This document shows, in pieces, positions 14,437-63,212 of a DNA stretch of 64,000 nt. Below the pieces are notes generated by a model. It saw only the letters and a list, made by a program, of their open reading frames with translations. It was not told where the DNA came from and searched no databases. The DNA lies in NCBI RefSeq assembly GCF_041248615.1, contig NZ_CP158426.1; one strand, written 5' to 3'. How positions within the stretch are numbered: position 1 is the first letter of the stretch; each line of letters opens with the position of its first letter. The position numbers were made by a program, and so were the translations under genes. Origin of the DNA: Escherichia coli (lineage in GTDB: Bacteria; Pseudomonadota; Gammaproteobacteria; Enterobacterales; Enterobacteriaceae).

Positions 14437-15727
14437 TTGCCTGATTTTGATATGTTCAATCCAGCATCAAATGAAGGTTAATTTATGGACGAAAAACAGT
14501 TACAGGCTCTGGCTAACGAACTGGCCAAAAACCTCAAAACCCCTGAAGACCTCAGTCAGTTTGATCGGCTGCTGAAAAAGCTCAGCGTTGAAGCCGCTCT
14601 CAATGCAGAGATGACACACCATCTTGGGTATGAGAAAAATCAGTCCAGACCAGGAGCTAACTCCCGCAACGGTTATTCCACAAAGACCGTTATCACAGGC
14701 GACGGTCCACTGGAACTGCGTACTCCGCGCGATCGTGACGGTACCTTCGAACCACAACTGGTAAAGAAAAATCAGACCCGTATTACCGGGATGGATAACC
14801 AGATCCTCTCGTTGTATGCCAAAGGGATGACCACCCGTGAGATAGCCGCTGCGTTCAAAGAACTGTATGACGCAGATGTTTCACCGGCACTGATATCAAA
14901 GGTTACCGATGCCGTGATGGAGCAGGTTGTAGAATGGCAAAACCGACCACTGGATGCTGTTTACCCCATTGTTTATCTTGACTGTATCGTCCTGAAAGTT
15001 CGGCAGGACAGTCGCATCATCAACAAATCGGTGTTCCTGGCACTGGGCATCAATATCGAAGGTCAGAAAGAACTGCTGGGTATGTGGCTGGCCGAAAATG
15101 AAGGGGCGAAGTTCTGGCTCAATGTGCTGACTGAACTGAAAAACCGCGGTCTGAACGATATCCTCATCGCCTGTGTGGATGGCCTGAAAGGCTTCCCGGA
15201 TGCCATCAACACAGTATATCCGAAGGCCCGCATCCAGTTATGCATCGTGCATATGGTGCGCAACAGCCTGCGCTTCGTGTCATGGAAGGACTACAAAGCC
15301 GTCACTCGCGACCTGAAAGCGATTTATCAGGCTCCCACGGAAGAGGCAGGTCAGCAGGCACTGGAAGCGTTCGCTGCGGCCTGGGACAGTCGCTATCCTC
15401 AGATAAGCCGAAGCTGGCAGGCTAACTGGCCGAATCTTGCCACGTTCTTCGCTTATCCAACGGACATCCGCAAAGTGATCTATACGACGAATGCCATCGA
15501 GTCGCTAAACAGCGTGATCCGCCATGCGATCAAAAAGCGTAAAGTGTTCCCGACAGACGACTCGGTGAAAAAAGTGGTGTGGCTGGCAATCCAGTCTGCG
15601 TCCCAGAAATGGACGATGCCGTTGAAGGACTGGCGAATGGCAATGAGCCGCTTTATTATCGAGTTCGGTGACCGCCTGGACGGTCACTTCTGAGAAAAGG
15701 CATTTACACAGAATCCTAAACAGGCTC
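14413..15727 (+). mobile_element. IS256-family (mutator-type) insertion sequence, 1315 bp
   Basis: Imperfect ~29-bp terminal inverted repeats (gagcctgtacatagatttgtgtaattgcc / ggcatttacacagaatcctaaacaggctc). An 8-bp target duplication GGGCATCA sits at 14405-14412 and 15728-15735. Confidence 0.9.
14485..15693 (+). CDS. IS256-family transposase (402 aa)
   Basis: Mutator-family layout: ...YLDCIVLKVR..., ...IACVDGLKGFPDAI..., ...TTNAIESLN... Confidence 0.92.
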   Translation: MDEKQLQALANELAKNLKTPEDLSQFDRLLKKLSVEAALNAEMTHHLGYEKNQSRPGANSRNGYSTKTVITGDGPLELRTPRDRDGTFEPQLVKKNQTRITGMDNQILSLYAKGMTTREIAAAFKELYDADVSPALISKVTDAVMEQVVEWQNRPLDAVYPIVYLDCIVLKVRQDSRIINKSVFLALGINIEGQKELLGMWLAENEGAKFWLNVLTELKNRGLNDILIACVDGLKGFPDAINTVYPKARIQLCIVHMVRNSLRFVSWKDYKAVTRDLKAIYQAPTEEAGQQALEAFAAAWDSRYPQISRSWQANWPNLATFFAYPTDIRKVIYTTNAIESLNSVIRHAIKKRKVFPTDDSVKKVVWLAIQSASQKWTMPLKDWRMAMSRFIIEFGDRLDGHF

Positions 15728-15878
15728 GGGCATCACGCAAGATTTACAAATTTGCGGGAGTTATTGAGTAACGAGCATTAGCTCAGATGAGAGTTGGTAC
15801 ACCTATGGCACAGAGCTAAACCTGATCTGTTATATTCGCTCTGTGCCGGAAGTATGCCATATTTATTACATACAGTTG

Positions 15879-18011
15879 TCAATCTTTAAGACTAATTGTG
15901 ATTGCATCTGGAAATCCAATTTGGCTATAGCACATAGTTTCGGTTATGAATAATTTTCTATCGATAAAATCAAGTACATCTTTTTTCGTGAGCCCCGTTA
16001 ACATCGTCAATTTGTTAATTACATAATCATACCAATCATGGTGAAGCATGTTTATATACATGTTAATATCAACTGCATCTTTCTTCCATGAATTATTCGG
16101 TATCAAATCTTCAGATAAAAATCCTCTTATTAAATCGCTTGCATAGGACATCCTAAGAAAAACAGAAAGAAAAAGCCTTACATTAACATGTGTAAAATTT
16201 GTAGATAGCGTCGAAGGAAACTCGTAAAACCGGTAGATCAACCGACTTACAAAAACAGCAGAGTCTATCGCATTTACAGGCAGTAATGTTCCGATGACAC
16301 TTAATGCACCACTTATAACGAAGCCATTAGCAACAGAGGCATGAGAACCACTTAGGGCAGATGTTAAACATGCACTCAGAATTACGATAGGAGGAATTCT
16401 TGCTATTTTTCTCAAACTCCAAGTGTCCACTTTATCCTCACCTATTATTAACCATCCATGACTCCCATTGCCATCATGGTTTCCATGACAATCCATAACA
16501 AGAATATGACCTTGATATTGATTTAGAGCATCAATAAACTCAGCTTTCGATCTAACATCAATAATCTCGCAATCAAGATCTGGCATCTGTTTTTTAAATA
16601 TCTCAATTGCGTTCTCTAATATGAACTTTAAGTGATCATCAGGCTCAAAAGAACGTATAACTAAAACCTTTCTCAACTCAGATGCTTTTACTAAAACGCG
16701 CGGAAAAGCAGAGGCGCTCTGTAGAAGAACGTTACCAGGCGTAGCATTTATTCTTGATATCTCATGACTGAACATTATAGGTATGTTATTAAACCTAATC
16801 CAATCCAATGGTACATCACAAACAAAGGACAAATCGCTATAGTTTTTACTTATATATGTTCTCAACTTGCAACCAAGGGCTCTTCGAATAACAGTATTGA
16901 ATGCTTTAGATTTAGTGATGAATGCTTCACTATTTATCCCAGAAGAAGTTGCAAGATCTTCAAGATTTTTCAAATAATTGGAGTAATGATTTATTGCATT
17001 TGGCAATCTTATTGCTGGGATTTTTTTATTTATGCTAAATAAAGTAATCGCAGCTGTTGTTAATCGCATTTCAGCGCGTCTTAGTGAGGTGAGGTAACGG
17101 AAAGCAGGACTTTTAAAAAGTTCTTTTCTATCTGAATTTATATCAAGTCTAATTCCAGAATAGCCTGGATTCCTCAACACTCCATCAATAAGGAATTTTT
17201 TCTCAATTGTGGATAAATTTTCCGTTATTAACTCATAAAAGTCATTATTTTTATCATATAAAAAAGAGTGCATACCCGGAGCAAAAAGTAAGACTTCCGT
17301 TGGAAGTGGTATATCTAATTCCTTTAAACATTCGGTGTATGCATCAACGCTATGAAGTATTATTTCTATAAACTCTCTTTTGCTACTACCATCTTTAATT
17401 CTTTTTGGTGGAGATAGCATATAGCCAAGTGATTCAATTAACAACTCATTGGGTAGTGTTGAATTGTTAAGCGTCGATCTCCAAGGTGATTTATTAAATA
17501 AAGCCCCTCTTCGCTTCAACTTCGTTGATATTTTCTTTTCACTGTGATTTTTTCTTATTTTATCCTCAATGAATTTCAACCGAGAGAAGAGCACCTTATC
17601 AAATGAGTATATACTATTAATCTTATTAAGTGGTAGATCAGCGCGTTTAGAATTGCAACAAATTATAGGTGGTATAGCAAAATGTTTTTTTAAAGCACAA
17701 ACATACGAAAAATCTTCTTTAGCACAAAAAATTAAGCAAAATGGCGTTTGATAAATATTTGGTATTTTTTCAAGATTTTCTTTAGATATTAAAAAAATAG
17801 GATTTAGCCCGCTTAGAGTAGGCTGAAAGTTATCATTTTCACTGACAAAAATCTCACTAATTTCTTTTGGTGTTTTGGCCAATAAAAAAAGAATGTTGGA
17901 TATCTCTGGGTTGAGGAGGCCAGTATCGAAACCTTGGATTATGGTTTGTTCCCCAGTAGTAGGCATGATTACAACTTTAAGTATCGCCCCGTGTTCCTGT
18001 AACAGTTCCAT
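15879..18011 (-). CDS. CHAT/caspase-like domain protein with a ~470-aa unassigned N-terminal region (710 aa from ATG-18011; track ORF extends to 18068 via TTG)
   Basis: His-Cys dyad context ILVMDCHGNHDG (His codon 16485-16487) and PPIVILSACLTSA (Cys codon 16368-16370), ~38 aa apart. Very AT-rich. TATAAT on the minus strand at 18095-18100. Confidence 0.7.
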   Translation of the reverse strand: MELLQEHGAILKVVIMPTTGEQTIIQGFDTGLLNPEISNILFLLAKTPKEISEIFVSENDNFQPTLSGLNPIFLISKENLEKIPNIYQTPFCLIFCAKEDFSYVCALKKHFAIPPIICCNSKRADLPLNKINSIYSFDKVLFSRLKFIEDKIRKNHSEKKISTKLKRRGALFNKSPWRSTLNNSTLPNELLIESLGYMLSPPKRIKDGSSKREFIEIILHSVDAYTECLKELDIPLPTEVLLFAPGMHSFLYDKNNDFYELITENLSTIEKKFLIDGVLRNPGYSGIRLDINSDRKELFKSPAFRYLTSLRRAEMRLTTAAITLFSINKKIPAIRLPNAINHYSNYLKNLEDLATSSGINSEAFITKSKAFNTVIRRALGCKLRTYISKNYSDLSFVCDVPLDWIRFNNIPIMFSHEISRINATPGNVLLQSASAFPRVLVKASELRKVLVIRSFEPDDHLKFILENAIEIFKKQMPDLDCEIIDVRSKAEFIDALNQYQGHILVMDCHGNHDGNGSHGWLIIGEDKVDTWSLRKIARIPPIVILSACLTSALSGSHASVANGFVISGALSVIGTLLPVNAIDSAVFVSRLIYRFYEFPSTLSTNFTHVNVRLFLSVFLRMSYASDLIRGFLSEDLIPNNSWKKDAVDINMYINMLHHDWYDYVINKLTMLTGLTKKDVLDFIDRKLFITETMCYSQIGFPDAITISLKD

Positions 18012-18144
18012 CAAAAATCCTAATAAACAAATAAGAATGTTATAATCAAAAACTGCAAGGATTAGCAAGCAATTCTTACAGTTTTAAGAAGGGGATTATA
18101 CCGCAATATGCATAATTGCGTTCTGCCTATGCAAAATGTCAGTT

Positions 18145-19362
18145 CTAGTCTGAACAAGTACAAGTAACTATCGATTCAACTCTCTCCCACCATGCCTGGT
18201 AAGCTTTACGCTGTTCATCTAAATAATCGCTCTTGTCATAAACCTGCCATACCCCTGGCAGTTTATGACCGAGCATTATTTCTGCAATATGAGGTGCAGT
18301 AAGATCAGAAAAGTTTGTTCGTGCTGTTCGTCTCAAATCATGAAGAGACCAATGAGGGAATTGATACCCCAAACGCCGCCATGCGTACTGCATTAAATTG
18401 TAAGGCAGCGACTGCAATGATGTCCGGCCAACGGGTTCCCTGCTTCCTTCCTTAGTAAAAAGCATATCGGAACCATTGTTCATAGAGATAACGTACTTTA
18501 TAAGCTCTTCAACCGGTTCAATAATGGGGCGCTTTAGCGGTTCGCCTGTTATATCCCCTGTCTTATGTCGTTCTGGCGGTACAGTCCATACCTTATTAAT
18601 GAAATCAAAATCATTCACCCTAGCGGTAATTAGCTCTGAACTACGGCAGCCAAAATGCAGCAATAGTTTAATGAAGGCCCGGTATTTAGGAACCATTCGA
18701 GAACCATCGATCGCAGCATAAAGGATTTTAATTTCATCATGTGTCAGAAACCGTTTCTTCTGACCTTTACGGATATCCATATCTTTACCCGTGATATCCG
18801 ACAGCGGGCGAGTTTCAATGAGCTTTCTCTTATACGCCCAGACATGGGCCTGCTTTGCGTTAATTAGCAATCGGTCTGCTATTGCTGGAGTCTTAGTGCT
18901 AAGAGGCTCCAGGACTTCTAACCAATCATGCAATGTAGCTGCATCGTGAGGGATATTCCCGATTTTAGAGAACAGGTGCAGCTCAAACGAGCGGAGTATC
19001 TGTTCAGAACCTTTTTTATTTTTTACACAATATGCTTCATACCAGGCACGGATCACAGACTCTACCGTCATGGCTTCAGTAGCTTTTCGTTTTTCAGCCT
19101 GCTTGACTAATCGTGGATTGCGGTTTGACTCGAGTTCACCACGGAGACGGATAACTTCTTCTCTGGCCTCTTTTAATCCAGTTGCCGGGTAAGTTCCGAT
19201 ATCAAGGCGCTCACCTTTCCCTGCCCATTGATAACGATATTGGAACACTACGCGACCTTTCGGTGATACTCTGACAGACAGACCATCACGATCGGATTTA
19301 ACCAAAACCTTATCACGTTCCTTTCCAACGACTGAACGCAACCACGCATCAGACAGCGCCAT
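18145..19362 (-). CDS. Tyrosine integrase, P4-like (405 aa)
   Basis: N-terminal DUF4102-type arm-binding region (LSVRVSPKGRVVFQYRY). Catalytic WSLHDLRRTARTNF and LGHK...VYDKSDY. Confidence 0.92.
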   Translation of the reverse strand: MALSDAWLRSVVGKERDKVLVKSDRDGLSVRVSPKGRVVFQYRYQWAGKGERLDIGTYPATGLKEAREEVIRLRGELESNRNPRLVKQAEKRKATEAMTVESVIRAWYEAYCVKNKKGSEQILRSFELHLFSKIGNIPHDAATLHDWLEVLEPLSTKTPAIADRLLINAKQAHVWAYKRKLIETRPLSDITGKDMDIRKGQKKRFLTHDEIKILYAAIDGSRMVPKYRAFIKLLLHFGCRSSELITARVNDFDFINKVWTVPPERHKTGDITGEPLKRPIIEPVEELIKYVISMNNGSDMLFTKEGSREPVGRTSLQSLPYNLMQYAWRRLGYQFPHWSLHDLRRTARTNFSDLTAPHIAEIMLGHKLPGVWQVYDKSDYLDEQRKAYQAWWERVESIVTCTCSD

Positions 19363-22780: not shown

Positions 22781-22867
22781 GCGAAGGTGGCGGAATTGGT
22801 AGACGCGCTAGCTTCAGGTGTTAGTGTCCTTACGGACGTGGGGGTTCAAGTCCCCCCCCTCGCACCA
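22781..22867 (+). tRNA. leuQ: tRNA-Leu(CAG)
   Basis: 87-nt gcgaaggtggcggaattggtagacgcg...ggttcaagtcccccccctcgcacca. Anticodon loop cttCAGgtg. Confidence 0.97.
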
Positions 22868-22895
22868 AAAACCACGTTGATATTGCTCGCACTGG

Positions 22896-22982
22896 GCGAA
22901 GGTGGCGGAATTGGTAGACGCGCTAGCTTCAGGTGTTAGTGTCCTTACGGACGTGGGGGTTCAAGTCCCCCCCCTCGCACCA
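22896..22982 (+). tRNA. leuP: tRNA-Leu(CAG)
   Basis: Identical 87-nt copy. Confidence 0.97.
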
Positions 22983-23016
22983 AACGAGGCGATATCAAAA
23001 AAAGTAAGATGACTGT

Positions 23017-23103
23017 GCGAAGGTGGCGGAATTGGTAGACGCGCTAGCTTCAGGTGTTAGTGTCCTTACGGACGTGGGGGTTCAAGTCCCCCCCCTCGCA
23101 CCA
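23017..23103 (+). tRNA. leuV: tRNA-Leu(CAG)
   Basis: Identical 87-nt copy. Confidence 0.97.
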
Positions 23104-52604: not shown

Positions 52605-54257
52605 TCAGACCAACCAAAGCTTCTTCAATTGCGTTTTCATTTTTTCATGTCTCATTTTCAGTTCAGCCAATCCCCATTCTGAAGAATTACAAACATCTTT
52701 TGTTAAATCAAAAGAGCTTTTACTATTAAGTTTCTCATAAATAGATTTCTTTTTGATAAAATCATAGTGTTGTGCTTCAGAATTTTTGGAACCACTTATG
52801 AGTGTTAAATTACCTATTTTATGCAGCCAGTAGACATGCTCTTGAGGTTGGAATCTATTAATCCAGTATTCATTAACTAATGCTTGAGGAAGAATATGCT
52901 CAATTGTGATTCTCCCCGTATAGGTTTTAATCACGCTCTCATCTTGTTGCTCCATGTCTAAGCGAAGCAAAATTGCTTTTATTAAGTTCACTTGATTCGG
53001 ACGAGGCTCATATAAATCTTCATCCAGAGCAGCTATAAAACCTGAATTATCTGCATGTTGGTTTATCTGATTTATCACAGAATCAAAAGGCATATCATTA
53101 TTTATTGCTACCAGAGCTGAATAACAAACCATTTCTCTTTGGCTTTTAATTTGTTTTTTTAACCACCCATGCATATATACCTTCTCAAAGGCGGTAATAA
53201 ATTGAGAAAAATCATCTAAATTAAAATCTTCTGTACGAGCCATTCGATTCATGAATGCCATAACCGGAGGAATCCACTCATCTACCCCTAAATTACTTAG
53301 CGATGCTATTTTTCGTCGTATTGAAGGGTGTTCAAAATCATTCTCTAAAATCTTAGTATAATTTTTTGCAGAATTAACCAACATCAGTGACATAGCAATA
53401 GCATCTCCATCAAATTGCTGCTGGAGATTTTCAATAAAAGCTTCAAAACCTTTTTGTAATACCCTGTCACGATCTTTTTTCTCGGAAAGCTTATGAAGAG
53501 TAAGAAATTTATCAAGCCGTCTCACTCCAACCATATCTTCAATTTGCGACCATGCTGATTCTATTTGCTCTGATTTTTTATTATGCGTAGAAGCTGATTC
53601 AAACAGTGCATTTTTTAAAAGATCTGCATTACTTAAAGGTAAACCTCGACTATTTAATACATTAAAGAGTCTAAATGATGATGCGAAATCATCAGTTTGC
53701 ACAAATACGATATATACATTTTGCAAAATATATTTAGCAAGCAACTTCAACTCATCAACAGATAACCGCAACAAATAATCTCTAATTGTTTCAGCGTTGC
53801 TAATGAATACTAACTCAGTATCCGATGGCTTTTCAGGTTTATAATCTTTAGAATCCTGCAGTATATAATATTTATAAAGATCATACTCTTTTTTTCTAAC
53901 AATTAGTCTTGGTTCATCAGTTTCATCAGAATAAACATCAATAGGCAGAACTCTTTTTTGCAAATCATCTTTTATCCCCTGAATCGGGATGATTTTTTTT
54001 AGCTCGGAGACAATAATGCTTAACGTTGTAAGACGTTGTTGTCCATCTACAACTTCATACTGATTTTGCCCTTTATTGATACAAATCATACTCCCAATAA
54101 AATATTCATTCTCTTCTGATTGAGAGCTTTTATAAATATCATCAATGAGTTGCTCTGCATTATCTACCGTCCAACTGTAAGGACGCTGATAAGAAGGAAT
54201 AATAAACTTTTTGTTTTCAGTAAGGATATCCTGCACCTTACATTCTTTAGCTTCCAT
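52605..54257 (-). CDS. DUF262 + DUF1524 (GmrSD-like) putative type IV restriction / modification-dependent nuclease (550 aa from ATG-54257)
   Basis: N-terminal IIPSYQRPYSW ... VVDGQQRLTT. C-terminal ITIEHILPQ ... HKIGNLTLISGSKNSEA. Very AT-rich. Occupies the K-12 mrr slot. Confidence 0.75.
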   Translation of the reverse strand: MEAKECKVQDILTENKKFIIPSYQRPYSWTVDNAEQLIDDIYKSSQSEENEYFIGSMICINKGQNQYEVVDGQQRLTTLSIIVSELKKIIPIQGIKDDLQKRVLPIDVYSDETDEPRLIVRKKEYDLYKYYILQDSKDYKPEKPSDTELVFISNAETIRDYLLRLSVDELKLLAKYILQNVYIVFVQTDDFASSFRLFNVLNSRGLPLSNADLLKNALFESASTHNKKSEQIESAWSQIEDMVGVRRLDKFLTLHKLSEKKDRDRVLQKGFEAFIENLQQQFDGDAIAMSLMLVNSAKNYTKILENDFEHPSIRRKIASLSNLGVDEWIPPVMAFMNRMARTEDFNLDDFSQFITAFEKVYMHGWLKKQIKSQREMVCYSALVAINNDMPFDSVINQINQHADNSGFIAALDEDLYEPRPNQVNLIKAILLRLDMEQQDESVIKTYTGRITIEHILPQALVNEYWINRFQPQEHVYWLHKIGNLTLISGSKNSEAQHYDFIKKKSIYEKLNSKSSFDLTKDVCNSSEWGLAELKMRHEKMKTQLKKLWLV

Positions 54258-54534: not shown

Positions 54535-56967
54535 ATGGCGGAACTGAACCTAAGTAACCTGACGGAAGCAGACATCATTACCAAATGCGTTATGCCAGCC
54601 ATTCTCAATGCAGGCTGGGACAACACAACGCAAATCAGACAGGAGGTCAAACTCCGGAACGGTAAAGTCATCGTACGTGGTAAAGTTGCGGCACGCAGAA
54701 CGGTAAAATCTGCTGACATCGTGCTGTATCACAAACCAGGCATTCCCTTAGCCGTGATTGAAGCAAAAGCCAACAAACATGAAATCGGCAAAGGGATGCA
54801 ACAGGGCATTGAATATGCGCGCCTGCTGGACGTTCCTTTTGTTTTTGCCACCAACGGTGATGGCTTTATCTTCCGCGACGCCACCGCAGCCGAAGGTGAA
54901 TGCCTTGAAAAGCAAATAACGCTGGATGACTTCCCCTCCCCCGCTGAACTCTGGCAAAAATTCTGCCTCTGGAAAGGATACACACAAGCTCAGCTTCCGG
55001 TGATTACTCAGGACTATTACGACGATGGCAGCGGTAAATCACCACGTTATTACCAGCTTCAGGCAATCAACAAAACCATTGAAGCCGTCTCCAACGGGCA
55101 AAACCGCGTTCTGCTGGTCATGGCGACCGGAACAGGGAAAACCTATACCGCATTCCAGATCATCTGGCGCCTGTGGAAATCAAAAAATAAAAAACGCATT
55201 TTGTTCCTTGCCGATCGCAACATTCTGGTCGACCAAACCAAACATAATGATTTCCAGCCATTTGGTACGGCAATGACCAAAGTCAGCGGACGCACCATTG
55301 ATCCCGCTTATGAAATTCACCTCGCGCTCTATCAGGCTATAACTGGCCCGGAGGAAGACCAAAAAGCGTTTAAACAAGTCGCACCAGATTTCTTCGATCT
55401 GATCGTGATCGACGAATGCCATCGCGGCAGCGCATCCGAAGACAGCGCCTGGCGAGAGATCCTTGATTATTTCAGTTCCTCCACCCAAATTGGCTTAACC
55501 GCCACGCCAAAAGAGACGCATGAAGTCTCCAGCACGGATTACTTCGGCGATCCGGTTTACGTCTACTCACTAAAAGAAGGGATCGAAGACGGCTTCCTCG
55601 CCCCTTATAAAGTTGTCCGTGTTGATATTGATATAGACCTGCAAGGCTGGCGCCCAACCAAAGGGCAAACTGACTTAAACGGCGAAGTGATCGACGATCG
55701 TATCTATAACCAGAAAGATTTCGATCGCACGATGGTAATCGACGAACGCACAGAACTGGTTGCCAGAACCATTACCGACTACCTCAAGCGCACCAACCCG
55801 ATGGATAAAACCATCGTCTTCTGTAACGACATCGATCATGCAGAACGTATGCGCCGCGCCCTGGTTAATCTCAACCCGGAGCAGGTGAAAAAGAACGACA
55901 AATACGTCATGAAAATCACCGGCGATGATGAAATTGGCAAAGCTCAGTTGGATAACTTCATCAACCCGAAAAAACCGTACCCGGTTATCGCGACCACTTC
56001 AGAGCTGATGACCACCGGTGTGGATGCTAAAACCTGCAAACTGGTAGTACTGGACCAGAACATCCAGTCGATGACCAAATTCAAGCAAATTATCGGTCGT
56101 GGTACACGCATCGACGAACGTTACGGCAAACTCTGGTTTACCATCCTCGACTTTAAAAAAGCCACCGAACTGTTTGCCGATGAGCGTTTCGATGGCATTC
56201 CCGAAAAAGTCATGGATACCACGCCAGAGGATATCGCCGACCCAGAATCTGATTTTGAAGAGAAACTCGAAGAAATCAGCGAACATGACGACGAACAGGT
56301 AACAGGCGTTGATGAACCGCCTGCGCCACCATACCAGGTTACCGATACCGATGATGTCGGCCCACTTCCGGAAGAAGACGAGAAGAAAATCCGCAAGTTT
56401 CACGTCAACGGTGTAGCGGTGGGCGTTATTGCGCAGCGTGTTCAGTATTACGATGCCGACGGTAAACTGGTTACCGAATCTTTTAAAGATTACACCCGCA
56501 AAACACTGCTCAAAGAATATGCCTCGCTGGATGACTTTACCCGCAAGTGGCAGGACGCCGATCGCAAAGAAGCGATCATTCACGAGCTGGAACAACAGGG
56601 GATCATCTGGGAAGTACTGGCAGAAGAAGTCGGTAAAGATCTCGACCCGTTCGACATGCTTTGCCACGTAGTGTATGGTCAGCCGCCGTTAACCCGCAAA
56701 GAGCGCGCCGAGAACGTGCGCAAGCGGAACTACTTCACAAAATACTCTGAAGCAGCGCAAGCCGTGCTCGATAATCTGCTGGATAAATACGCCGATGCGG
56801 GCGTACAGGAGATCGAAAGTATTCAGGTGCTGAAACTTAAGCCATTCGACAGCATGGGCACCTTACCGGAGATTATTAAAACCGGATTTGGCGACCGTAA
56901 CGGGTATAATCAGGCGCTCAGCGAGCTGGAAAACGAAATCTACCAATTACCGCCCCGCTCTGCTTAA
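54535..56967 (+). CDS. hsdR: Type I restriction enzyme R subunit, IB (EcoAI-like) family, 810 aa
   Basis: N-terminal PD-(D/E)xK (DIVLY...IEAKAN), DEAD-box helicase motifs ([18 protein letters not shown]), acidic C-terminal linker. Confidence 0.9.
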
Positions 56968-56981
56968 CAACTCTCTTTTGC

Positions 56982-57020
56982 GCCTTCTGCAACCATCATG
57001 TTGCAGAAGGCCTTGTTTTT
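56982..57020 (+). terminator. Terminator-like hairpin between hsdR and hsdM
   Basis: gccttctgcaac-catcat-gttgcagaaggc, followed by cttgttttt. Confidence 0.55.
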
Positions 57021-57033
57021 CATGGAATACAAC

Positions 57034-58503
57034 ATGTCTATCAGCTCAGTAATCAAATCATTACAAGATATTATGCGCAAAGATGCCGGTGTGGACGGCG
57101 ATGCGCAGCGTCTCGGTCAGCTCTCCTGGCTGCTGTTTTTGAAAATCTTCGATGCCCAGGAAGAGGCGCTGGAACTGGAGCAGGATAACTATCAATATCC
57201 GATCCCACAGCGTTATTTATGGCGCAGTTGGGCCGCAAACGCTCAGGGCATTACCGGTGATTCCCTGCTGGAATTCGTTAATGATGATCTGTTCCCGGCG
57301 TTGAAAAACCTCACTGCGCCTATCGATAAAAACCCACGCGGCTACGTGGTAAAGCAGGCGTTCAGCGATGCCTATAACTACATGAAAAACGGTACGCTAC
57401 TGCGTCAGGTGATCAACAAGCTGAACGAAATTGACTTTACCAGCGCCAGCGAACGGCATCTGTTTGGTGATATTTACGAGCAGATCCTTAAAGATCTGCA
57501 ATCTGCGGGCAATGCGGGCGAATTCTATACTCCACGCGCCGTCACTCGCTTTATGGTGGATCGCGTTGATCCGAAACTCGGCGAATCCATTATGGACCCG
57601 GCCTGCGGTACGGGCGGTTTTCTTGCCTGCGCATTTGATCATGTAAAGAACAAATACGTGAAGAGCGTCGCCGATCATCAGACGCTGCAACAACAGATCC
57701 ACGGTGTTGAGAAAAAACAGCTTCCGCACCTGCTGGCGACCACCAATATGCTGCTACACGGCATTGAAGTGCCAGTGCAAATTCGTCACGACAACACTCT
57801 GAACAAACCGCTTTCCTCCTGGGATGAGCAACTGGATGTCATTGTTACCAACCCGCCGTTTGGTGGCACGGAAGAAGACGGTATTGAGAAGAACTTTCCA
57901 GCAGAGATGCAAACCCGCGAAACGGCGGATTTGTTCCTGCAACTGATTGTGGAAGTACTGGCGAAAAATGGTCGCGCGGCGGTGGTATTGCCGGATGGCA
58001 CACTATTTGGCGAAGGCGTTAAAACCAAAATCAAAAAGCTACTTACCGAAGAGTGCAACCTGCATACCATCGTGCGCTTACCGAATGGTGTGTTTAACCC
58101 CTATACCGGCATTAAAACCAACCTGTTGTTCTTTACCAAAGGTCAGCCAACCAAAGAGATTTGGTTCTATGAGCATCCGTATCCGGCGGGCGTGAAAAAT
58201 TACAGTAAAACTAAGCCGATGAAGTTTGAAGAGTTTCAGGCGGAGATTGACTGGTGGGGTAACGAGGCCGATGGTTTTGCCAGCCGCGTCGAGAATGAGC
58301 AGGCGTGGAAAGTCAGCATTGATGACGTGATTGCGCGCAACTTCAATCTGGATATTAAAAACCCACATCAGGCGGAAACCGTTAGCCATGATCCGGACGA
58401 ACTGTTAGCGCAGTATGCAAAACAGCAGGCGGAGATCCAGACGCTGCGTAATCAACTGCGCGATATTCTTGGCGCTGCGCTGTCTGGCAAGGAGGTTAAC
58501 TAA
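57034..58503 (+). CDS. hsdM: Type I R-M N6-adenine methyltransferase subunit (489 aa from ATG-57034)
   Basis: SAM motif DPACGTGGFL and catalytic NPPFG. Confidence 0.9.
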   Translation: MSISSVIKSLQDIMRKDAGVDGDAQRLGQLSWLLFLKIFDAQEEALELEQDNYQYPIPQRYLWRSWAANAQGITGDSLLEFVNDDLFPALKNLTAPIDKNPRGYVVKQAFSDAYNYMKNGTLLRQVINKLNEIDFTSASERHLFGDIYEQILKDLQSAGNAGEFYTPRAVTRFMVDRVDPKLGESIMDPACGTGGFLACAFDHVKNKYVKSVADHQTLQQQIHGVEKKQLPHLLATTNMLLHGIEVPVQIRHDNTLNKPLSSWDEQLDVIVTNPPFGGTEEDGIEKNFPAEMQTRETADLFLQLIVEVLAKNGRAAVVLPDGTLFGEGVKTKIKKLLTEECNLHTIVRLPNGVFNPYTGIKTNLLFFTKGQPTKEIWFYEHPYPAGVKNYSKTKPMKFEEFQAEIDWWGNEADGFASRVENEQAWKVSIDDVIARNFNLDIKNPHQAETVSHDPDELLAQYAKQQAEIQTLRNQLRDILGAALSGKEVN

Positions 58504-60248
58504 TGAGTGTGGAAAAGCTGATCGTTGATCATATGGAAACCTGGACCTCGGCGTTGCAAACCCGTTCCACCGCCGGGCGCGGCAGTTCCGGAAAAATTGA
58601 TTTATATGGCATTAAGAAATTACGTGAGCTGATTCTGGAACTGGCTGTGCGCGGTAAACTGGTGCCGCAGGACCCGAACGATGAACCGGCGTCGGAGCTG
58701 CTGAAGCGTATTGCGGCAGAAAAAGCAGAGCTGGTGAAGCAAGGTAAAATTAAAAAGCAAAAACCACTGCCGGAAATTAGTGAGGAAGAGAAGCCGTTTG
58801 AATTGCCGGAGGGATGGGAGTGGGTGCGTATTAGTGAAATTGGACATGACTGGGGACAAAAAACTCCAGATAAAGATTTTACTTACATTGATGTTGGTTC
58901 AATAAATAAAGAATATGGAATTATTGAAGAGCCATCTATTCTTTCAGCGAAAGATGCCCCATCGCGAGCGAGAAAAATTGTTCAGCAAGGGACTATCATA
59001 TACTCTACTGTTCGCCCGTATTTGTTAAATATAGCTATTATTGAAAACGAAATACTACCTGAACCGATCGCTAGTACTGCCTTCGCTATTATTCATCCAT
59101 ATACGGCGATGGATGCTAATTTCATTTATTATTATCTACGTTCTCCGGTATTTGTTTGTTATGTTGAAAATTGTCAGACAGGGGTTGCCTATCCAGCAAT
59201 CAATGACAAACAATTTTTTTCTGGAATAACTCCAGTTCCTCCATCCTTGGAACAAGTTCGCATCGCAAACAAAATCAAAGAATTAATGTCCCTCTGCGAC
59301 CAACTGGAACAGCAATCCCTGACCAGTCTGGACGCACATCAACAACTGGTTGAAACCCTGTTGGGAACGCTGACTGACAGCCAAAACGCCGAGGAACTGG
59401 CTGAAAACTGGACGCGTATTAGCGAGCATTTCGACACACTATTTACCACCGAAGCCAGCGTGGATGCGCTAAAACAGACCATTCTGCAACTGGCGGTAAT
59501 GGGTAAACTTGTGCCGCAGGATCCGAATGACGAACCTGCCTCTGAACTGCTCAAACGAATTGCGCAGGAAAAAGCACAACTGGTGAAAGACGGGAAAATA
59601 AAAAAACAAAAACCGTTGCCGCCGATTAGCGATGAGGAAAAACCGTTTGAACTGCCGGATGGGTGGGAGTGGTGTCGTATCGTTGATTTAGCAATTGTAG
59701 GTACAGGCGCAACACCTTCTCGTGATGAGCCCAACTATTGGAAAAATGGAGTAATTAATTGGGTGACAAGTGGAGAAACTTGCTTACCTTTTATTCAAAA
59801 CACCACCGAACATATTACCCAAAAGGCTGTTGATGAAACAAATGTTTCAATCTATCCACCAGGAACTCTTATTATTGCAATGTATGGACAAGGAAAAACA
59901 AGAGGGCAAATCACAGAGTTATTAATAAGTGCTGGAACAAACCAAGCATGCGCAGCCATTCGATTAATCGAAACGGATAATGAGCATCGTAAATTTATAA
60001 AACTTTTTTTTGAAAAGTCTTATGATGATTTACGTAGTTTAGCCGCTGGAGGTGCACAGCCAAATCTAAATGTAGCAAAAATATCACAAACTGTTATACC
60101 ATTGCCCCCTAAAAGAGAACAAAATCGGATCGTTTCTATTGTGGGGGAGTTATTAATTTATTGCGATAAATTACGCAAAAATATCCAGACCGCCCAACAA
60201 ACCCAACTGCACCTTGCAGATGCACTAACTGACGCGGCGATAAACTAA
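58503..60248 (+). CDS. hsdS: Type I R-M specificity subunit, long IB-type (581 aa) with two AT-rich TRDs and a duplicated conserved spacer
   Basis: The ~70-aa segment GKLVPQDPNDEPASELLKRIA.EKA.LVK.GKIKKQKPLP.IS.EEKPFELP.GWEW occurs twice (nt ~58630-58840 and ~59485-59700). ATGA overlap with hsdM. Confidence 0.9.
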   Translation: MSVEKLIVDHMETWTSALQTRSTAGRGSSGKIDLYGIKKLRELILELAVRGKLVPQDPNDEPASELLKRIAAEKAELVKQGKIKKQKPLPEISEEEKPFELPEGWEWVRISEIGHDWGQKTPDKDFTYIDVGSINKEYGIIEEPSILSAKDAPSRARKIVQQGTIIYSTVRPYLLNIAIIENEILPEPIASTAFAIIHPYTAMDANFIYYYLRSPVFVCYVENCQTGVAYPAINDKQFFSGITPVPPSLEQVRIANKIKELMSLCDQLEQQSLTSLDAHQQLVETLLGTLTDSQNAEELAENWTRISEHFDTLFTTEASVDALKQTILQLAVMGKLVPQDPNDEPASELLKRIAQEKAQLVKDGKIKKQKPLPPISDEEKPFELPDGWEWCRIVDLAIVGTGATPSRDEPNYWKNGVINWVTSGETCLPFIQNTTEHITQKAVDETNVSIYPPGTLIIAMYGQGKTRGQITELLISAGTNQACAAIRLIETDNEHRKFIKLFFEKSYDDLRSLAAGGAQPNLNVAKISQTVIPLPPKREQNRIVSIVGELLIYCDKLRKNIQTAQQTQLHLADALTDAAIN

Positions 60249-60374
60249 TTTTCTCGCCCTCAAAAAAACCAATAAAGCGGCTCAATAGCCGCTTTATTAA
60301 CATCACCAAAAATTATATTTCACGCTAATTTTCATCTTATTTTCATTAATTTTTAGCTGGACTTTCCCTGTATT

Positions 60375-60394: not shown

Positions 60395-60399
60395 ATTTA

Positions 60400-60478
60400 G
60401 CGCGGTGCGGATGTGCGCCAACACACCCACACCGCTCATCACAATCCCTATTTCACGAGAATAGTAATCATGACTGAC
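60400..60478 (-). ncRNA. symR: Expected SymR antisense sRNA overlapping the symE 5' UTR and start codon (approximate ends)
   Basis: Inferred from the K-12 symE/SymR arrangement. The ends cannot be determined from sequence alone. Confidence 0.4.
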
Positions 60479-60811
60479 ACGCATTCTATTGCACAACCGT
60501 TCGAAGCAGAAGTCTCCCCGGCAAATAACCGTCAATTAACCGTGAGTTATGCGAGCCGCTACCCGGATTACAGCCGTATTCCCGCCATCACCCTGAAAGG
60601 TCAGTGGCTGGAAGCTGCCGGTTTTGCCACCGGCACGGCGGTAGATGTCAAAGTGATGGAAGGCTGTATTGTCCTCACCGCCCAACCACCCGCCGCCGAA
60701 GAGAGCGAGCTAATGCAGTCGCTGCGCCAGGTGTGCAAGCTGTCGGCGCGTAAACAAAAGCAGGTGCGGGAATTTATTGGGGTGATTGCGGGTAAACAGA
60801 AAGTCGCCTGA
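60470..60811 (+). CDS. symE: SOS-induced type I toxin SymE (113 aa)
   Basis: [52 protein letters not shown]... AbrB-like fold family. Confidence 0.9.
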
Positions 60812-60857
60812 TACATTGACCCGGTAGCGCCAGTGCTACCGGGTATTATTCGCCACG

Positions 60858-62951
60858 TTATACCAACGCGTTCTCCATCTGTTTTTCAAATGCCTGACGA
60901 ATTAATCCCATAATGTAAGGAAGTTGTGCGAGGTCGCTGAAACCAATTTCCACATCACCATTGCCCCAGCGCCCAACATTTGTCACATCTTTGGCAATAC
61001 CTTTCGGATCGACCAGTTCATGAAACTGCATATTAAGCGACAATCGCAGTCGGCTTTTTTGCGGCACAACATCAACAAAATTCGTTTCAGCTTTAAACGC
61101 AATATATAGCTTCAATACTTCCTGCGTGATCCCTGCGTCCAGGCGCATAACTTCATCGCGAAGATGATCGAATAACACTCGGCTATGCGAACCATCAGCA
61201 AGAAAAGGAAAATCATTCAGGCTGTAACTGGTTTTGTTTTCAGGCTGCCCCCGATAAACAGCTAAAACCTCTTCAGGAAGAGCAGGCGCTTGCCAAACCT
61301 GAACCGCAAGCTCCGCCAGACGATCGGCACGGGCATGAATGGCGGCTTCATCCCATTTTTCGCACTGTCCAAGACCGATATTCAAATAGAGCGGGCTATG
61401 TTTAAAGCCGTCTTCAATATCGCGTTTTTCCGCGAAAGGTCTGTCACTGTAGCGGGAGTTATAGCGCGTTAAAGTGAGATTCCCCAACGTATGTAACAGT
61501 TCTTTATGCACACGCTGCCAGTCGCTTCCCAGCTCTTCACGCCATTTAGCCGACAGATTTTCGTTCTGCGGCATAATATGCTCAATCGTAAACTCTTCCA
61601 CGCGCTCTCTGCGTTTATCGTTTTCCAGTCGTCGTAACCAGTAGCTGCGACTACGGAAGTTATAGAGATCGCGAACTTTTAATTCCCGTTTAAATTCATC
61701 ATCGTTGGGGAAACGACGATATGAAGGCAGATTCAGAAAATGTACCTGAATACTTTCCAGATATTTTTCTTTAATAATGACCTTATAAAAGGTAGCAAAC
61801 GTCTTGTTAAGAGAATTTGTCGGAATCGCACATACTGCACGGCGGAAAACATAAGATTCAATTAAACGAATTATGCTCAGGAAATCTTCGTGAGGCAAAT
61901 CGCCATTTTTATAGTCATGATAAAGCGCCAGTAAGAAAGGATACGCCACATCGACCTTTAACTCGCGCAAATCCTGAAAAGCCGTAGCAAGCGATTTGTC
62001 ACTTTCTTTACCCAATGCCATTGCACAGTAATACTCCGCGTAGATGTGAATATCTTCAACCAGGCGATCTACGCCTTTTTCAGCAACACTCTGGCTGCGG
62101 GCATGGAGTTTAAATGCCTCATAGACTTCATCTGTCCGAGGGATCTCCCCCGTTTTTACCGTCAGATAATGACGCATAAAACTGTCAAAATATTCGCTGT
62201 AACCTTGCTGACCAAAAGCGACTTCCATGGGTCGCCAGTGATCTTCATACAACCGGGTTTGATGCTCTGGTTCGAGGCCCATCAGAATAAAATTGCGCAC
62301 CAGATCGGCCTGACTTAACGCCTTACCGGTAGAGTTCATACTTTCAAAAATCAGTTGCGGATTATCCTGACCACGATTAAGCGCCACATCGACAATTAAT
62401 AATTTTGCTAACCCACGACATAAGGGAATCAAGTCATCCCCGAGTTTGGCAATTTGTTCATCAAAGAAAGTAAAGTTTTCCATTATTCGATGGGAATAGT
62501 TTTCTGGCATTGGTCTTTGTTTTATTAACGCCAGCAAACTGTCTTTATCAGTCTCGGTCAGCAGTAATTTAAATCCTTTCTCGCCGGACTCATAAGGATT
62601 GAGTAAATAATAATTACGCAATTTCATTGCTGAAAAGCCATCAAAAACTTCGTCTTCGCCAAGATGACGCGATAAAGCCTCAATCAGCAACATTGCGGTC
62701 GTCAGCCTTTGTTGACCATCAATGACCAGTAACGGAGAAATACCAGAAACCTGATACAACCCCTGCTCAATATAAACAACCGAACCGATAAAATGCGCTG
62801 ATATATCGTCACGCTTTCCGGCACGAATGATGTCGTCCCAAAGTTGCCGACATTGTTGTTCTGTCCATGAATAAGTCCGTTGATAAATGGGAATAACAAA
62901 CTGCTGCGAACGTTTTAAAAAATCGAGTAGGCGGGCTTCTGTAGCTTTCAT
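60858..62951 (-). CDS. DUF262 + DUF1524 (GmrSD-like) putative type IV restriction enzyme with an extra ~170-aa C-terminal domain (697 aa)
   Basis: FVIPIYQRTYSW ... VIDGQQRLTT. FTIEHIMPQ ... HTLGNLTLTRYNSRYSD. C-terminal KLYIAFKAETNFVDVVPQKSRLRLSL module. Occupies the K-12 mcrBC-yjiTV slot. Confidence 0.8.
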   Translation of the reverse strand: MKATEARLLDFLKRSQQFVIPIYQRTYSWTEQQCRQLWDDIIRAGKRDDISAHFIGSVVYIEQGLYQVSGISPLLVIDGQQRLTTAMLLIEALSRHLGEDEVFDGFSAMKLRNYYLLNPYESGEKGFKLLLTETDKDSLLALIKQRPMPENYSHRIMENFTFFDEQIAKLGDDLIPLCRGLAKLLIVDVALNRGQDNPQLIFESMNSTGKALSQADLVRNFILMGLEPEHQTRLYEDHWRPMEVAFGQQGYSEYFDSFMRHYLTVKTGEIPRTDEVYEAFKLHARSQSVAEKGVDRLVEDIHIYAEYYCAMALGKESDKSLATAFQDLRELKVDVAYPFLLALYHDYKNGDLPHEDFLSIIRLIESYVFRRAVCAIPTNSLNKTFATFYKVIIKEKYLESIQVHFLNLPSYRRFPNDDEFKRELKVRDLYNFRSRSYWLRRLENDKRRERVEEFTIEHIMPQNENLSAKWREELGSDWQRVHKELLHTLGNLTLTRYNSRYSDRPFAEKRDIEDGFKHSPLYLNIGLGQCEKWDEAAIHARADRLAELAVQVWQAPALPEEVLAVYRGQPENKTSYSLNDFPFLADGSHSRVLFDHLRDEVMRLDAGITQEVLKLYIAFKAETNFVDVVPQKSRLRLSLNMQFHELVDPKGIAKDVTNVGRWGNGDVEIGFSDLAQLPYIMGLIRQAFEKQMENALV

Positions 62952-63047
62952 TCTGACGTCTTTCCGTGAAGCGATGATTTCGCAATAATAACCACTTCCT
63001 TGTGGAGGTTATAGAGAAATCCTGTTTATCCGCGACGAACTGCCCCC

Positions 63048-63212
63048 TCACTCCACATCCTCCCTGCGTAACCCAATATCCCTCAACCGCTCATCACTCA
63101 TCTGCTGTAACACCCGCCGGGCCTGCATTTGCCGCCGCCAACGCCTCACTGCCTGCCAGAGTTGCACAAGTCCAATAAACGGTGCTTTAGCTTTGTTTTC
63201 GTGAAATTCCAT
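63048..63212 (-). CDS. yjiS: DUF1127 small protein YjiS (54 aa; below the track cut-off)
   Basis: Hand translation: MEFHENKAKAPFIGLVQLWQAVRRWRRQMQARRVLQQMSDERLRDIGLRREDVE. Confidence 0.8.
   Translation of the reverse strand: MEFHENKAKAPFIGLVQLWQAVRRWRRQMQARRVLQQMSDERLRDIGLRREDVE

Follow-up and report, generated by a model that had tools for sequence, protein, structure and literature searches.

Between symE and yjiS, Escherichia coli K-12 carries yjiT, yjiV', mcrC, and mcrB. In the 64,000-nt stretch of E. coli DNA analyzed here (contig NZ_CP158426.1; hereafter the window), a single gene for a protein of 697 amino acids (aa) occupies this slot, which lies in the E. coli immigration control region (ICR) beside a type IB hsdRMS operon. 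What does this gene encode, and what does the module at its C-terminus do? A preliminary description of the sequence had assigned the protein to the GmrSD family of restriction enzymes and had proposed that the additional module reads DNA or a modification. In this study, we aimed to evaluate this assignment, the nature of the module, and the relationship of the gene to the neighboring restriction genes. Earlier work already covers the gene, its slot, and the arrangement in which two GmrSD genes occur, and the protein is an ordinary, catalogued GmrSD-family member. It is very likely a defence nuclease of this family, the nuclease activity being predicted from its conserved domains. Our overall explanation, which we consider fairly probable, is that the locus would be a defence cassette of one gene, acquired laterally into the E. 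coli ICR.

The gene and its slot

The gene and the cassette that carries it were delimited as follows.

60858..62951, minus strand: intact 697-aa coding sequence, GmrSD family with a C-terminal DUF5655 domain (open reading frame (ORF) list, Pfam, dN/dS)
60808..63042, no strand assigned: cassette differing from K-12 (blastn breakpoints against MG1655, K-12 annotation, composition)

In the ORF listing of the window, 60858..62951 on the minus strand is one uninterrupted ORF of 697 aa. An in-frame stop codon lies 20 codons 5' of the ATG and residues M1-K2-A3 are invariant in the alignment of homologues; the start was therefore placed at 62951. The preliminary description had drawn the feature from 60858 to 63047. 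The gene itself was correctly recognized, but the end at 63047 also takes in the 96-bp spacer to the stop codon of yjiS, which is located upstream of and co-directional with the gene. The ratio of nonsynonymous to synonymous substitution rates (dN/dS) against four other intact E. coli alleles was 0.05-0.08, so this is not a chance ORF. The exact protein is present on 836 public contigs.

Neighboring genes were annotated from the chromosome of E. coli NRZ14408 (NZ_LT599825.1, 4611546-4675545), which is identical to the window (0 mismatches). There, RefSeq/PGAP makes two features of the intact ORF, namely a 387-aa 'GmrSD restriction endonuclease domain-containing protein' that starts at the internal Met311 and a 'DUF262 pseudogene, missing C-terminus'. 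This split recurs in several genomes, some of them with DNA identical to the window. Because the identical DNA is uninterrupted, the fragment and the pseudogene are an annotation artefact, and the split hides the full-length protein from RefSeq proteomes.

A blastn comparison with K-12 MG1655 showed that homology ends at window position 60807 in symE and restarts at 63043 in yjiS. A 2.2-kb cassette thus stands in place of the 7.6 kb of K-12 that hold yjiT, yjiV', mcrC, and mcrB, and the replacement of these genes by a single ORF, as first described, was borne out by the ORF listing and by blastn. The 697-aa protein had no similarity to the yjiT/yjiV'/mcrC/mcrB region of K-12 in a tblastn search (best E 0.17). 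The idea that the slot holds diverged K-12 genes was ruled out by this lack of residual similarity, in favor of a replacement. The G+C content is approximately 43-46% in the cassette and 33% in the gene for a 550-aa GmrSD paralogue on the far side of the hsdRMS operon, compared with 52-57% in the flanks, and both GmrSD genes look laterally acquired.

Architecture and relatives of the 697-aa protein

The protein consists of the following parts.

62286..62927, minus strand: GmrSD_N/DUF262 (ParB-like NTPase), residues 9-222 (Pfam PF03235, E 8e-35)
61710..62285, minus strand: helical middle region, residues 223-414 (all-helical, with a high predicted local distance difference test (pLDDT) score in the full-length model; mean conservation 0.77)
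61311..61709, minus strand: GmrSD_C/DUF1524 His-Me finger nuclease domain, residues 415-547 (Pfam PF07510, E 6e-27)
61182..61310, minus strand: end of the nuclease domain and variable linker, residues 548-590 (conservation, pLDDT)
60882..61181, minus strand: DUF5655 (PF18899), residues 591-690, with the last helix reaching residue 696 (Pfam)

The three Pfam domains all scored above the curated cut-offs. GmrSD_N carries the motifs QRxYSW (residues 24-29) and DGQQR (residues 78-82, nt 62706-62720), and GmrSD_C carries EHxxP (E457-H458...P461, nt 61569-61583) together with N491 and N498. In an alignment of 76 sequences from many phyla, Q24, R25, Y27, S28, W29, D78, G79, Q80, Q81, and R82 of the first domain and E457, H458, P461, Q462, N491, and N498 of the second were invariant. 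The catalytic motif residues were likewise without variation in a second alignment of homologues. All the motifs on which DUF262 and DUF1524 had first been recognized were found, and Pfam named the same domains as GmrSD_N and GmrSD_C. The protein therefore has both domains that define the GmrSD family, with their motif residues conserved, on a single chain joined by the helical residues 223-414. A two-gene GmrS/GmrSD doublet of the GmrSD-ECOR17 type was not found, the flanks of the gene being symE and yjiS. The other DUF262 gene, that of the 550-aa paralogue, lies at a distance of 6.6 kb, encodes a nuclease domain of its own, and is often present where the 697-aa gene is absent. In PADLOC, residues 10-553 matched 'Orf5' (738 bits), HEC-06 (E 2e-67), and mREase_IV (E 3e-28), and residues 592-688 matched the C-terminus of the candidate system PDC-S18.

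Relatives of this gene have been reported repeatedly. Homologues in the ICR, including APECO1_2080, UTI89_C5048, EcolC_3721, and others, were described beside endoribonuclease and type I genes (He et al., 2015; PMC4437046), and GmrSD was found in 12% of ICR loci in a 2025 EcoSal review (PMC12707154). CLS_001, the largest enterobacterial GmrSD cluster, includes D782_3934, WP_001589601, and WP_001596486 (Silas et al., 2025; PMC12373910). D782_3934 (AGB79837.1) is 74% identical to the 697-aa protein and has the same three domains. CLS_001 and the ICR homologues belong to the same family as the gene studied here, and the strains of He et al. have it in the same chromosomal slot, but neither He et al. 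nor Silas et al. describes the DUF5655 domain. Other extra domains of GmrSD proteins have been catalogued, with DUF5655 not among them (Machnicka et al., 2015).

GmrSD enzymes are nucleoside triphosphate (NTP)-stimulated His-Me nucleases that act on modified cytosines (PMC4437046, PMC12707154). The type IV prototype, GmrSD of E. coli CT596 (Eco94GmrSD), which acts on DNA containing hydroxymethylcytosine (hmC) or glucosyl-hmC, resembles the 697-aa protein in its single-chain DUF262 plus DUF1524 arrangement and in the DGQQR and (D/E)HxxP motifs, and it offers the NTP-stimulated His-Me nuclease as a working model. It differs in being prophage-borne and without DUF5655, and the identity between the two is approximately 24%, as reported for APECO1_2080 (PMC4437046). 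The HEC-06 models of PADLOC match residues 2-555 of the 697-aa protein at the above E value. HEC-06 and BrxU share with it the motifs that were proven essential by mutagenesis, in which substitution of the equivalent Q/R and E/H (D/H) residues abolished phage defence (bioRxiv 10.1101/2024.01.29.577857), and they are likewise embedded in or adjoin larger defence systems (Hma, BREX, type I); their models, however, end at the nuclease domain, without DUF5655.

The 697-aa protein is a single chain composed of DUF262, a helical middle, DUF1524, a flexible linker, and DUF5655. By analogy with Eco94GmrSD, BrxU, and HEC-06, the N-terminal DUF262 domain (ParB/Srx-like) would bind and hydrolyze NTP via QRxYSW and DGQQR, and the His-Me finger (HNH-type) of DUF1524 would act via EHxxP, N491, and N498, giving an NTP-stimulated nuclease directed against incoming phage or plasmid DNA. 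Its most likely target would be DNA with a non-host base modification (type IV restriction), although we lean only slightly towards a dependence on DNA modification. Such an enzyme would complement the neighboring type I system, which attacks unmodified DNA, and would functionally replace McrBC in the slot. McrBC occupies the same position of the ICR in K-12 and, by its type IV role, is a likely functional analogue. The proteins themselves are unrelated (tblastn E > 0.1): McrBC is a two-gene system made up of a GTPase-driven AAA+ protein and a PD-(D/E)xK nuclease.

Among solved structures, the best matches by sequence and by fold were DndI (9jfl; sequence E 2e-12, Foldseek E 6e-11) and SspE (6jiv). 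These phosphorothioate-sensing DUF262-HNH effectors share the NTPase plus nickase/nuclease logic with the 697-aa protein, but they need the dnd or ssp modification genes and both are without DUF5655. No dnd or ssp genes (dndBCDE, sspABCD) are annotated within the window, and a phosphorothioate-sensing mode in this strain was set aside for that reason.

The C-terminal DUF5655 domain

The C-terminal module was compared with the second GmrSD gene of the window.

52605..54257, minus strand: 550-aa GmrSD paralogue without DUF5655 (Pfam, identity, RefSeq annotation, composition)

Pfam finds only GmrSD_N and GmrSD_C in the paralogue, and its alignment with the 697-aa protein (24% identity) stops at residue 553, which agrees with the earlier statement that the paralogue lacks the module. 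The paralogue is identical to WP_000387532.1 and UniProt Q6TMI4; of the 619 E. coli genomes with a match, 618 have it at 99% identity or more. Cluster CLS_005 of Silas et al. includes it (PMC12373910). Within the top 120 matches, its family extends down to approximately 51% identity; at the same rank, the family of the 697-aa protein is still at 70%.

The module is real, but it is shorter than the approximately 170 aa first given: residues 554-697, approximately 145 aa, comprise a 37-aa variable linker and a domain of approximately 107 aa. The match to DUF5655 has an E value of 1e-13 and 51.6 bits against a cut-off of 24, and it covers positions 13-108 of the 109 in the Pfam profile. Among 75 full-length orthologues, the mean conservation of DUF5655 is 0.80. 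The catalytic domains reach 0.78-0.79 and the linker (residues 554-590) 0.53; in the linker, no column is invariant and pLDDT is low around residues 570-573. The dN/dS of the C-terminal part within E. coli is 0.10-0.21, and purifying selection acts on all the domains. DUF5655 is a strongly constrained module, not a dispensable tail, and its conservation at the level of the catalytic domains answers the concern that it could be a functionless extension. We know of no DUF5655 member with a known function. In a literature search, DUF5655 surfaced only in an unrelated paper and PDC-S18 was not found.

The predicted fold of DUF5655 is alpha-beta(5)-alpha, of the YdhG/YjbR/CyaY-like class, with a helix, an antiparallel sheet of approximately five strands, a long C-terminal helix, and a significant structural match to solved members. 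By sequence, the C-terminal 143 aa had no match in PDB at E <= 10. T4 MotA, whose C-terminal domain binds DNA, matched more weakly through that domain. NCBI and COG name the YjbR family 'MmcQ/YjbR family DNA-binding protein' and assign it a double-wing motif, which we take as a lead only. Structure comparison gave a fold class that is compatible with nucleic-acid binding; the same class also includes frataxin/CyaY, type III secretion chaperones, and an immunity protein.

When the C-terminal domain alone served as query in a word-indexed protein search, nearly all matches were short fragments from the same family. In an exhaustive profile search, the top 150 matches were mostly of the same family. 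Some members have two or three DUF5655 stretches in tandem, either following the nuclease domain or standing alone (P0256, P0347, P0316). DUF5655 was also found fused to type I HsdS target-recognition domains, with two different junctions (P0353, L097 5055-6239; P0283). One HsdS-DUF5655 gene adjoins a tyrosine recombinase/integrase, and these fusions may be functional proteins or recombination debris. The C-terminal domain matches both PDC-S18 and PF18899, and PDC-S18-like proteins differ from the 697-aa protein in bearing a SLOG domain in place of the nuclease; in one of them, DUF5655 is fused to SLOG (LD_cluster3) in a neighborhood with SNF2, Vsr, HNH, and a C5 DNA methylase (P0383, L098 1537-2454). 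The tandem copies and the SLOG and HsdS fusions are typical of a portable binding module. A phage (Siphoviridae sp.) DUF5655 protein in BFVD, A0A8S5UUZ7, matches the model of the C-terminal domain (Foldseek E 2e-5).

DUF5655 is an integral accessory module in which the binding of a substrate or partner may tune target choice or activation. That it reads DNA or a modification, as first proposed, is a tentative suggestion. Invariant basic and aromatic residues, namely K614 and Y616, and K620 and R634 that are invariant among closer homologues, lie on or beside the predicted beta-strands. A partner-binding or regulatory role is about as plausible, given the members of the fold class that do not bind DNA, the slightly acidic composition of the domain (13 K+R against 15 D+E), and the SLOG and HsdS fusions. 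In its specific form, which is possible but rather unlikely, this alternative keeps the GmrSD-type nuclease and makes DUF5655 a regulatory or protein-binding domain rather than a reader; the domain could keep the nuclease auto-inhibited, with release upon binding of a phage protein or small molecule, or it could mediate oligomerization. SLOG domains are predicted nucleotide-ligand sensors, so their fusion to DUF5655 suits such a role. The phage-encoded DUF5655 protein could in principle be a decoy. Several GmrSD enzymes are toxic and require tight control (PMC12373910), which also speaks for it. The MotA match and the four conserved residues count against a purely regulatory domain.

Distribution, type I linkage, and neighboring genes

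The features that surround the gene in the ICR are as follows.

54535..60248, plus strand: type IB hsdRMS operon, whole
54535-56967, plus strand: type IB (EcoAI/FtnUII family) hsdR (RefSeq annotation of the identical genome)
57034-58503, plus strand: type IB hsdM (RefSeq annotation of the identical genome)
58503-60248, plus strand: type IB hsdS (RefSeq annotation of the identical genome)
60399..60475, minus strand: SymR antitoxin small RNA (Rfam RF01809, 88 bits against a gathering score of 61)
60470..60811, plus strand: symE (RefSeq annotation of the identical genome; 93% identical to K-12)
63048..63212, minus strand: yjiS (DUF1127) (annotation)

The bracketing of one type I system by two GmrSD genes had been called notable. 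Counted as yjiA, GmrSD-550, type IB hsdRMS, symE, GmrSD-697, and yjiS, the whole arrangement was found in 526 of the 5426 complete E. coli genomes, the O157:H7 lineage among them, and both ICR homologues of GmrSD and GmrSD-like genes inside type I systems have been published (PMC4437046, PMC12707154, bioRxiv 10.1101/2024.01.29.577857); the arrangement is not unusual. The 697-aa gene was detected by megablast in 1288 of the 5426 genomes, or in 1402 when an allele with 72% DNA identity is counted (approximately 24-26%). Alleles with 97% identity are present in ATCC 8739, PMV-1, and NU14. The 72%-identical allele (699 aa, approximately 117 genomes; E. coli M22546, L096 5996-8095) occupies another position in the same island, flanked by yjiA-brnA-fic and by a different type I hsdMSR operon, and is divergent from hsdM. 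This arrangement mirrors that of Enterobacteriaceae strain FGI 57, and RefSeq annotates the allele as one intact 699-aa protein.

At least three independent knock-out alleles of the 697-aa gene were found in E. coli.

G5 to G4 at approximately nt 800: 298 complete genomes, O157:H7 clade, e.g., FRIK2069 (L004 12001-14093)
One-base loss in an A run at approximately nt 473: 104 genomes, e.g., VE-T2 (L008 301-2393)
W239* (TGG to TGA): 50 genomes, O104:H4 clade, e.g., HUSEC2011 (L005 301-2394)

In O157:H7, the 550-aa paralogue is also broken, being split into two ORFs. These alleles raise the alternative that the gene is a decaying remnant in E. coli, without current function in this strain. The frequency of the three independent lesions, the broken O157:H7 paralogue, and the RefSeq call of even intact copies as a fragment plus a pseudogene would fit decay. 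We regard it as very unlikely, however: the copy in the window is intact with a conserved start and all catalytic residues, seven of ten sampled E. coli alleles are intact, the dN/dS among intact alleles is low, and the RefSeq split is the artefact described above.

The island is being remodelled by insertion sequence (IS) elements. Some pig isolates have the 550-aa paralogue interrupted by IS3 or IS1. In ATCC 8739 (L094 1-5392), IS3 replaces hsdR and the 5' part of hsdM, and both GmrSD genes are intact. The intact copy of ATCC 8739 was not used as evidence against activity, since the identity of this strain with the classical restriction-less E. coli C is uncertain.

Beyond E. coli, one scan of species-representative genomes returned at least 588 orthologues from approximately 20 phyla, and the best 80 of them were used for detailed locus analysis. 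These are 61-76% identical to the 697-aa protein, and 75 are full-length (680-709 aa). They span Proteobacteria, Actinomycetota, Cyanobacteria, Planctomycetota, Acidobacteriota, Chloroflexota, Bacillota, Bacteroidota, Spirochaetota, and others, and include two archaeal metagenome-assembled genomes (MAGs; Methanosaeta and Methanococcoides). Of the 80 loci, 45 have type I hsd genes within 10 kb. When only the loci with at least 5 kb on both sides are considered, of which there are likewise 45, the number is 30; the chance rate is approximately 1% by our own estimate, which assumes about one type I system per genome. The linked hsd genes are on the same strand as the GmrSD-DUF5655 gene in all but one case. 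At least 10 of the 80 loci have the gene inserted between hsdM and hsdS, with hsdM 12-42 nt upstream and hsdS 21-24 nt downstream; other loci have it between hsdS and hsdR or immediately behind hsdR. Frequent embedding of GmrSD-like genes in type I systems has been published (bioRxiv 10.1101/2024.01.29.577857), and the linkage seen here agrees with it.

The linkage also opens the alternative that the protein is a second restriction effector of the type I system, sensing the self mark. It would read the N6-methyladenine pattern of the adjacent HsdM/HsdS or dock on HsdM2S, possibly via DUF5655, in the manner of SspE and DndI, which read host phosphorothioate marks, spare self DNA, and nick unmarked phage DNA (PMC11662687). 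The same-strand insertions into hsd operons, the HsdS-DUF5655 fusion proteins, and DndI and SspE as the closest solved structures all point in this direction, and the very high conservation suits a conserved partner better than an arms race. We nevertheless judge it improbable. The E. coli gene and the hsd operon are convergent, with symE in between; the same gene adjoins different type I families; it is intact in ATCC 8739 despite the loss of hsdR and the IS3 cut in hsdM; and the window holds no dnd or ssp genes. Elsewhere, 15 of the 45 well-flanked loci are without hsd genes, and the Nitrincola copy adjoins an Mks/Wadjet-like cluster instead. Type I operons, moreover, host many unrelated defence genes that do not depend on them functionally (bioRxiv 10.1101/2024.01.29.577857).

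A wider version, which we consider more doubtful still, would make the GmrSD-DUF5655 subfamily a companion effector of type I restriction-modification systems across prokaryotes, with DUF5655 linking the nuclease to the type I machinery. It is suggested by the identity of at least 61% over approximately 20 phyla, including the archaeal MAGs, and by the hsdM-hsdS insertion in many operons. DUF5655 might then recognize the methylation mark of the system, bind HsdM2S, or detect anti-restriction proteins by which the type I enzyme is disabled, with SspE/DndI and phosphorothioation, or PrrC and EcoPrrI, as parallels.

Several observations weigh against the explanation that we prefer, that of a modification-dependent GmrSD defence nuclease. 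The N-terminal domain has low confidence in the full-length AlphaFold2 (AF2) model (DUF262 pLDDT < 50), which was built on a shallow alignment of sequences all at least 70% identical and is usable only for the middle, nuclease, and C-terminal parts. DndI and SspE, the nearest relatives with solved structures, sense phosphorothioate, and BrxU had no match at E <= 1 in a PDB sequence search with the 697-aa protein, so modification dependence cannot come from homology. For an enzyme engaged in an arms race against phage inhibitors, an identity of at least 61% over phyla and domains is uncommonly high. At least 452 of the approximately 1288 E. coli carriers (at least 35%) have knock-out alleles, and the gene is thus dispensable in some lineages. 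Representatives of all GmrSD clusters were synthesized and tested against T-even phages, with five further systems active (PMC12373910); we found no activity result for the CLS_001 subfamily, and the phage outcome per cluster is given only in a figure in Silas et al. (PMC12373910). The CLS analysis does not appear in a related earlier preprint from that group (10.1101/2023.04.06.535777). To these are added the members of the DUF5655 fold class that do not bind DNA and the slight acidity of the domain.

Regarding the immediate neighbors, symE is convergent with the 697-aa gene across a 46-bp spacer. A promoter/terminator scan found no terminator-like site between yjiS and the gene. Matches around the gene were at the chance level (5 found against 5.0 expected), with none in the 96-bp upstream spacer. 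A hairpin at 60268-60301, between hsdS and symE, has a 15-bp stem followed by a T run, is predicted on the minus strand, and is one of only two terminator-like sites in the region. At the other side of the window, 14485-19362 contains an IS1414 transposase and the two genes listed below, and forms the edge of a prophage-like region beside yjjG, approximately 3.4 kb from a triple tRNA-Leu cluster (22781-23103).

15879-18011, minus strand: CHAT-domain protein, 710 aa
18145-19362: tyrosine integrase

The CHAT-domain protein could be another defence or abortive-infection gene.

For E. coli, the finding in this window matters little in itself, as the gene, its slot, and the two-GmrSD layout are common and already published. 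Two consequences are broader. The independent knock-outs in pathotype lineages (O157:H7, O104:H4, and a third clade) bear on which modified phages could infect them. Owing to the RefSeq split, defence surveys based on proteomes will under-count or mis-size the commonest enterobacterial GmrSD family. For the family as a whole, the role of DUF5655 in defence is a well-defined question: the domain is conserved like the catalytic core, recurs on SLOG and HsdS scaffolds, and belongs to a family linked to type I operons.

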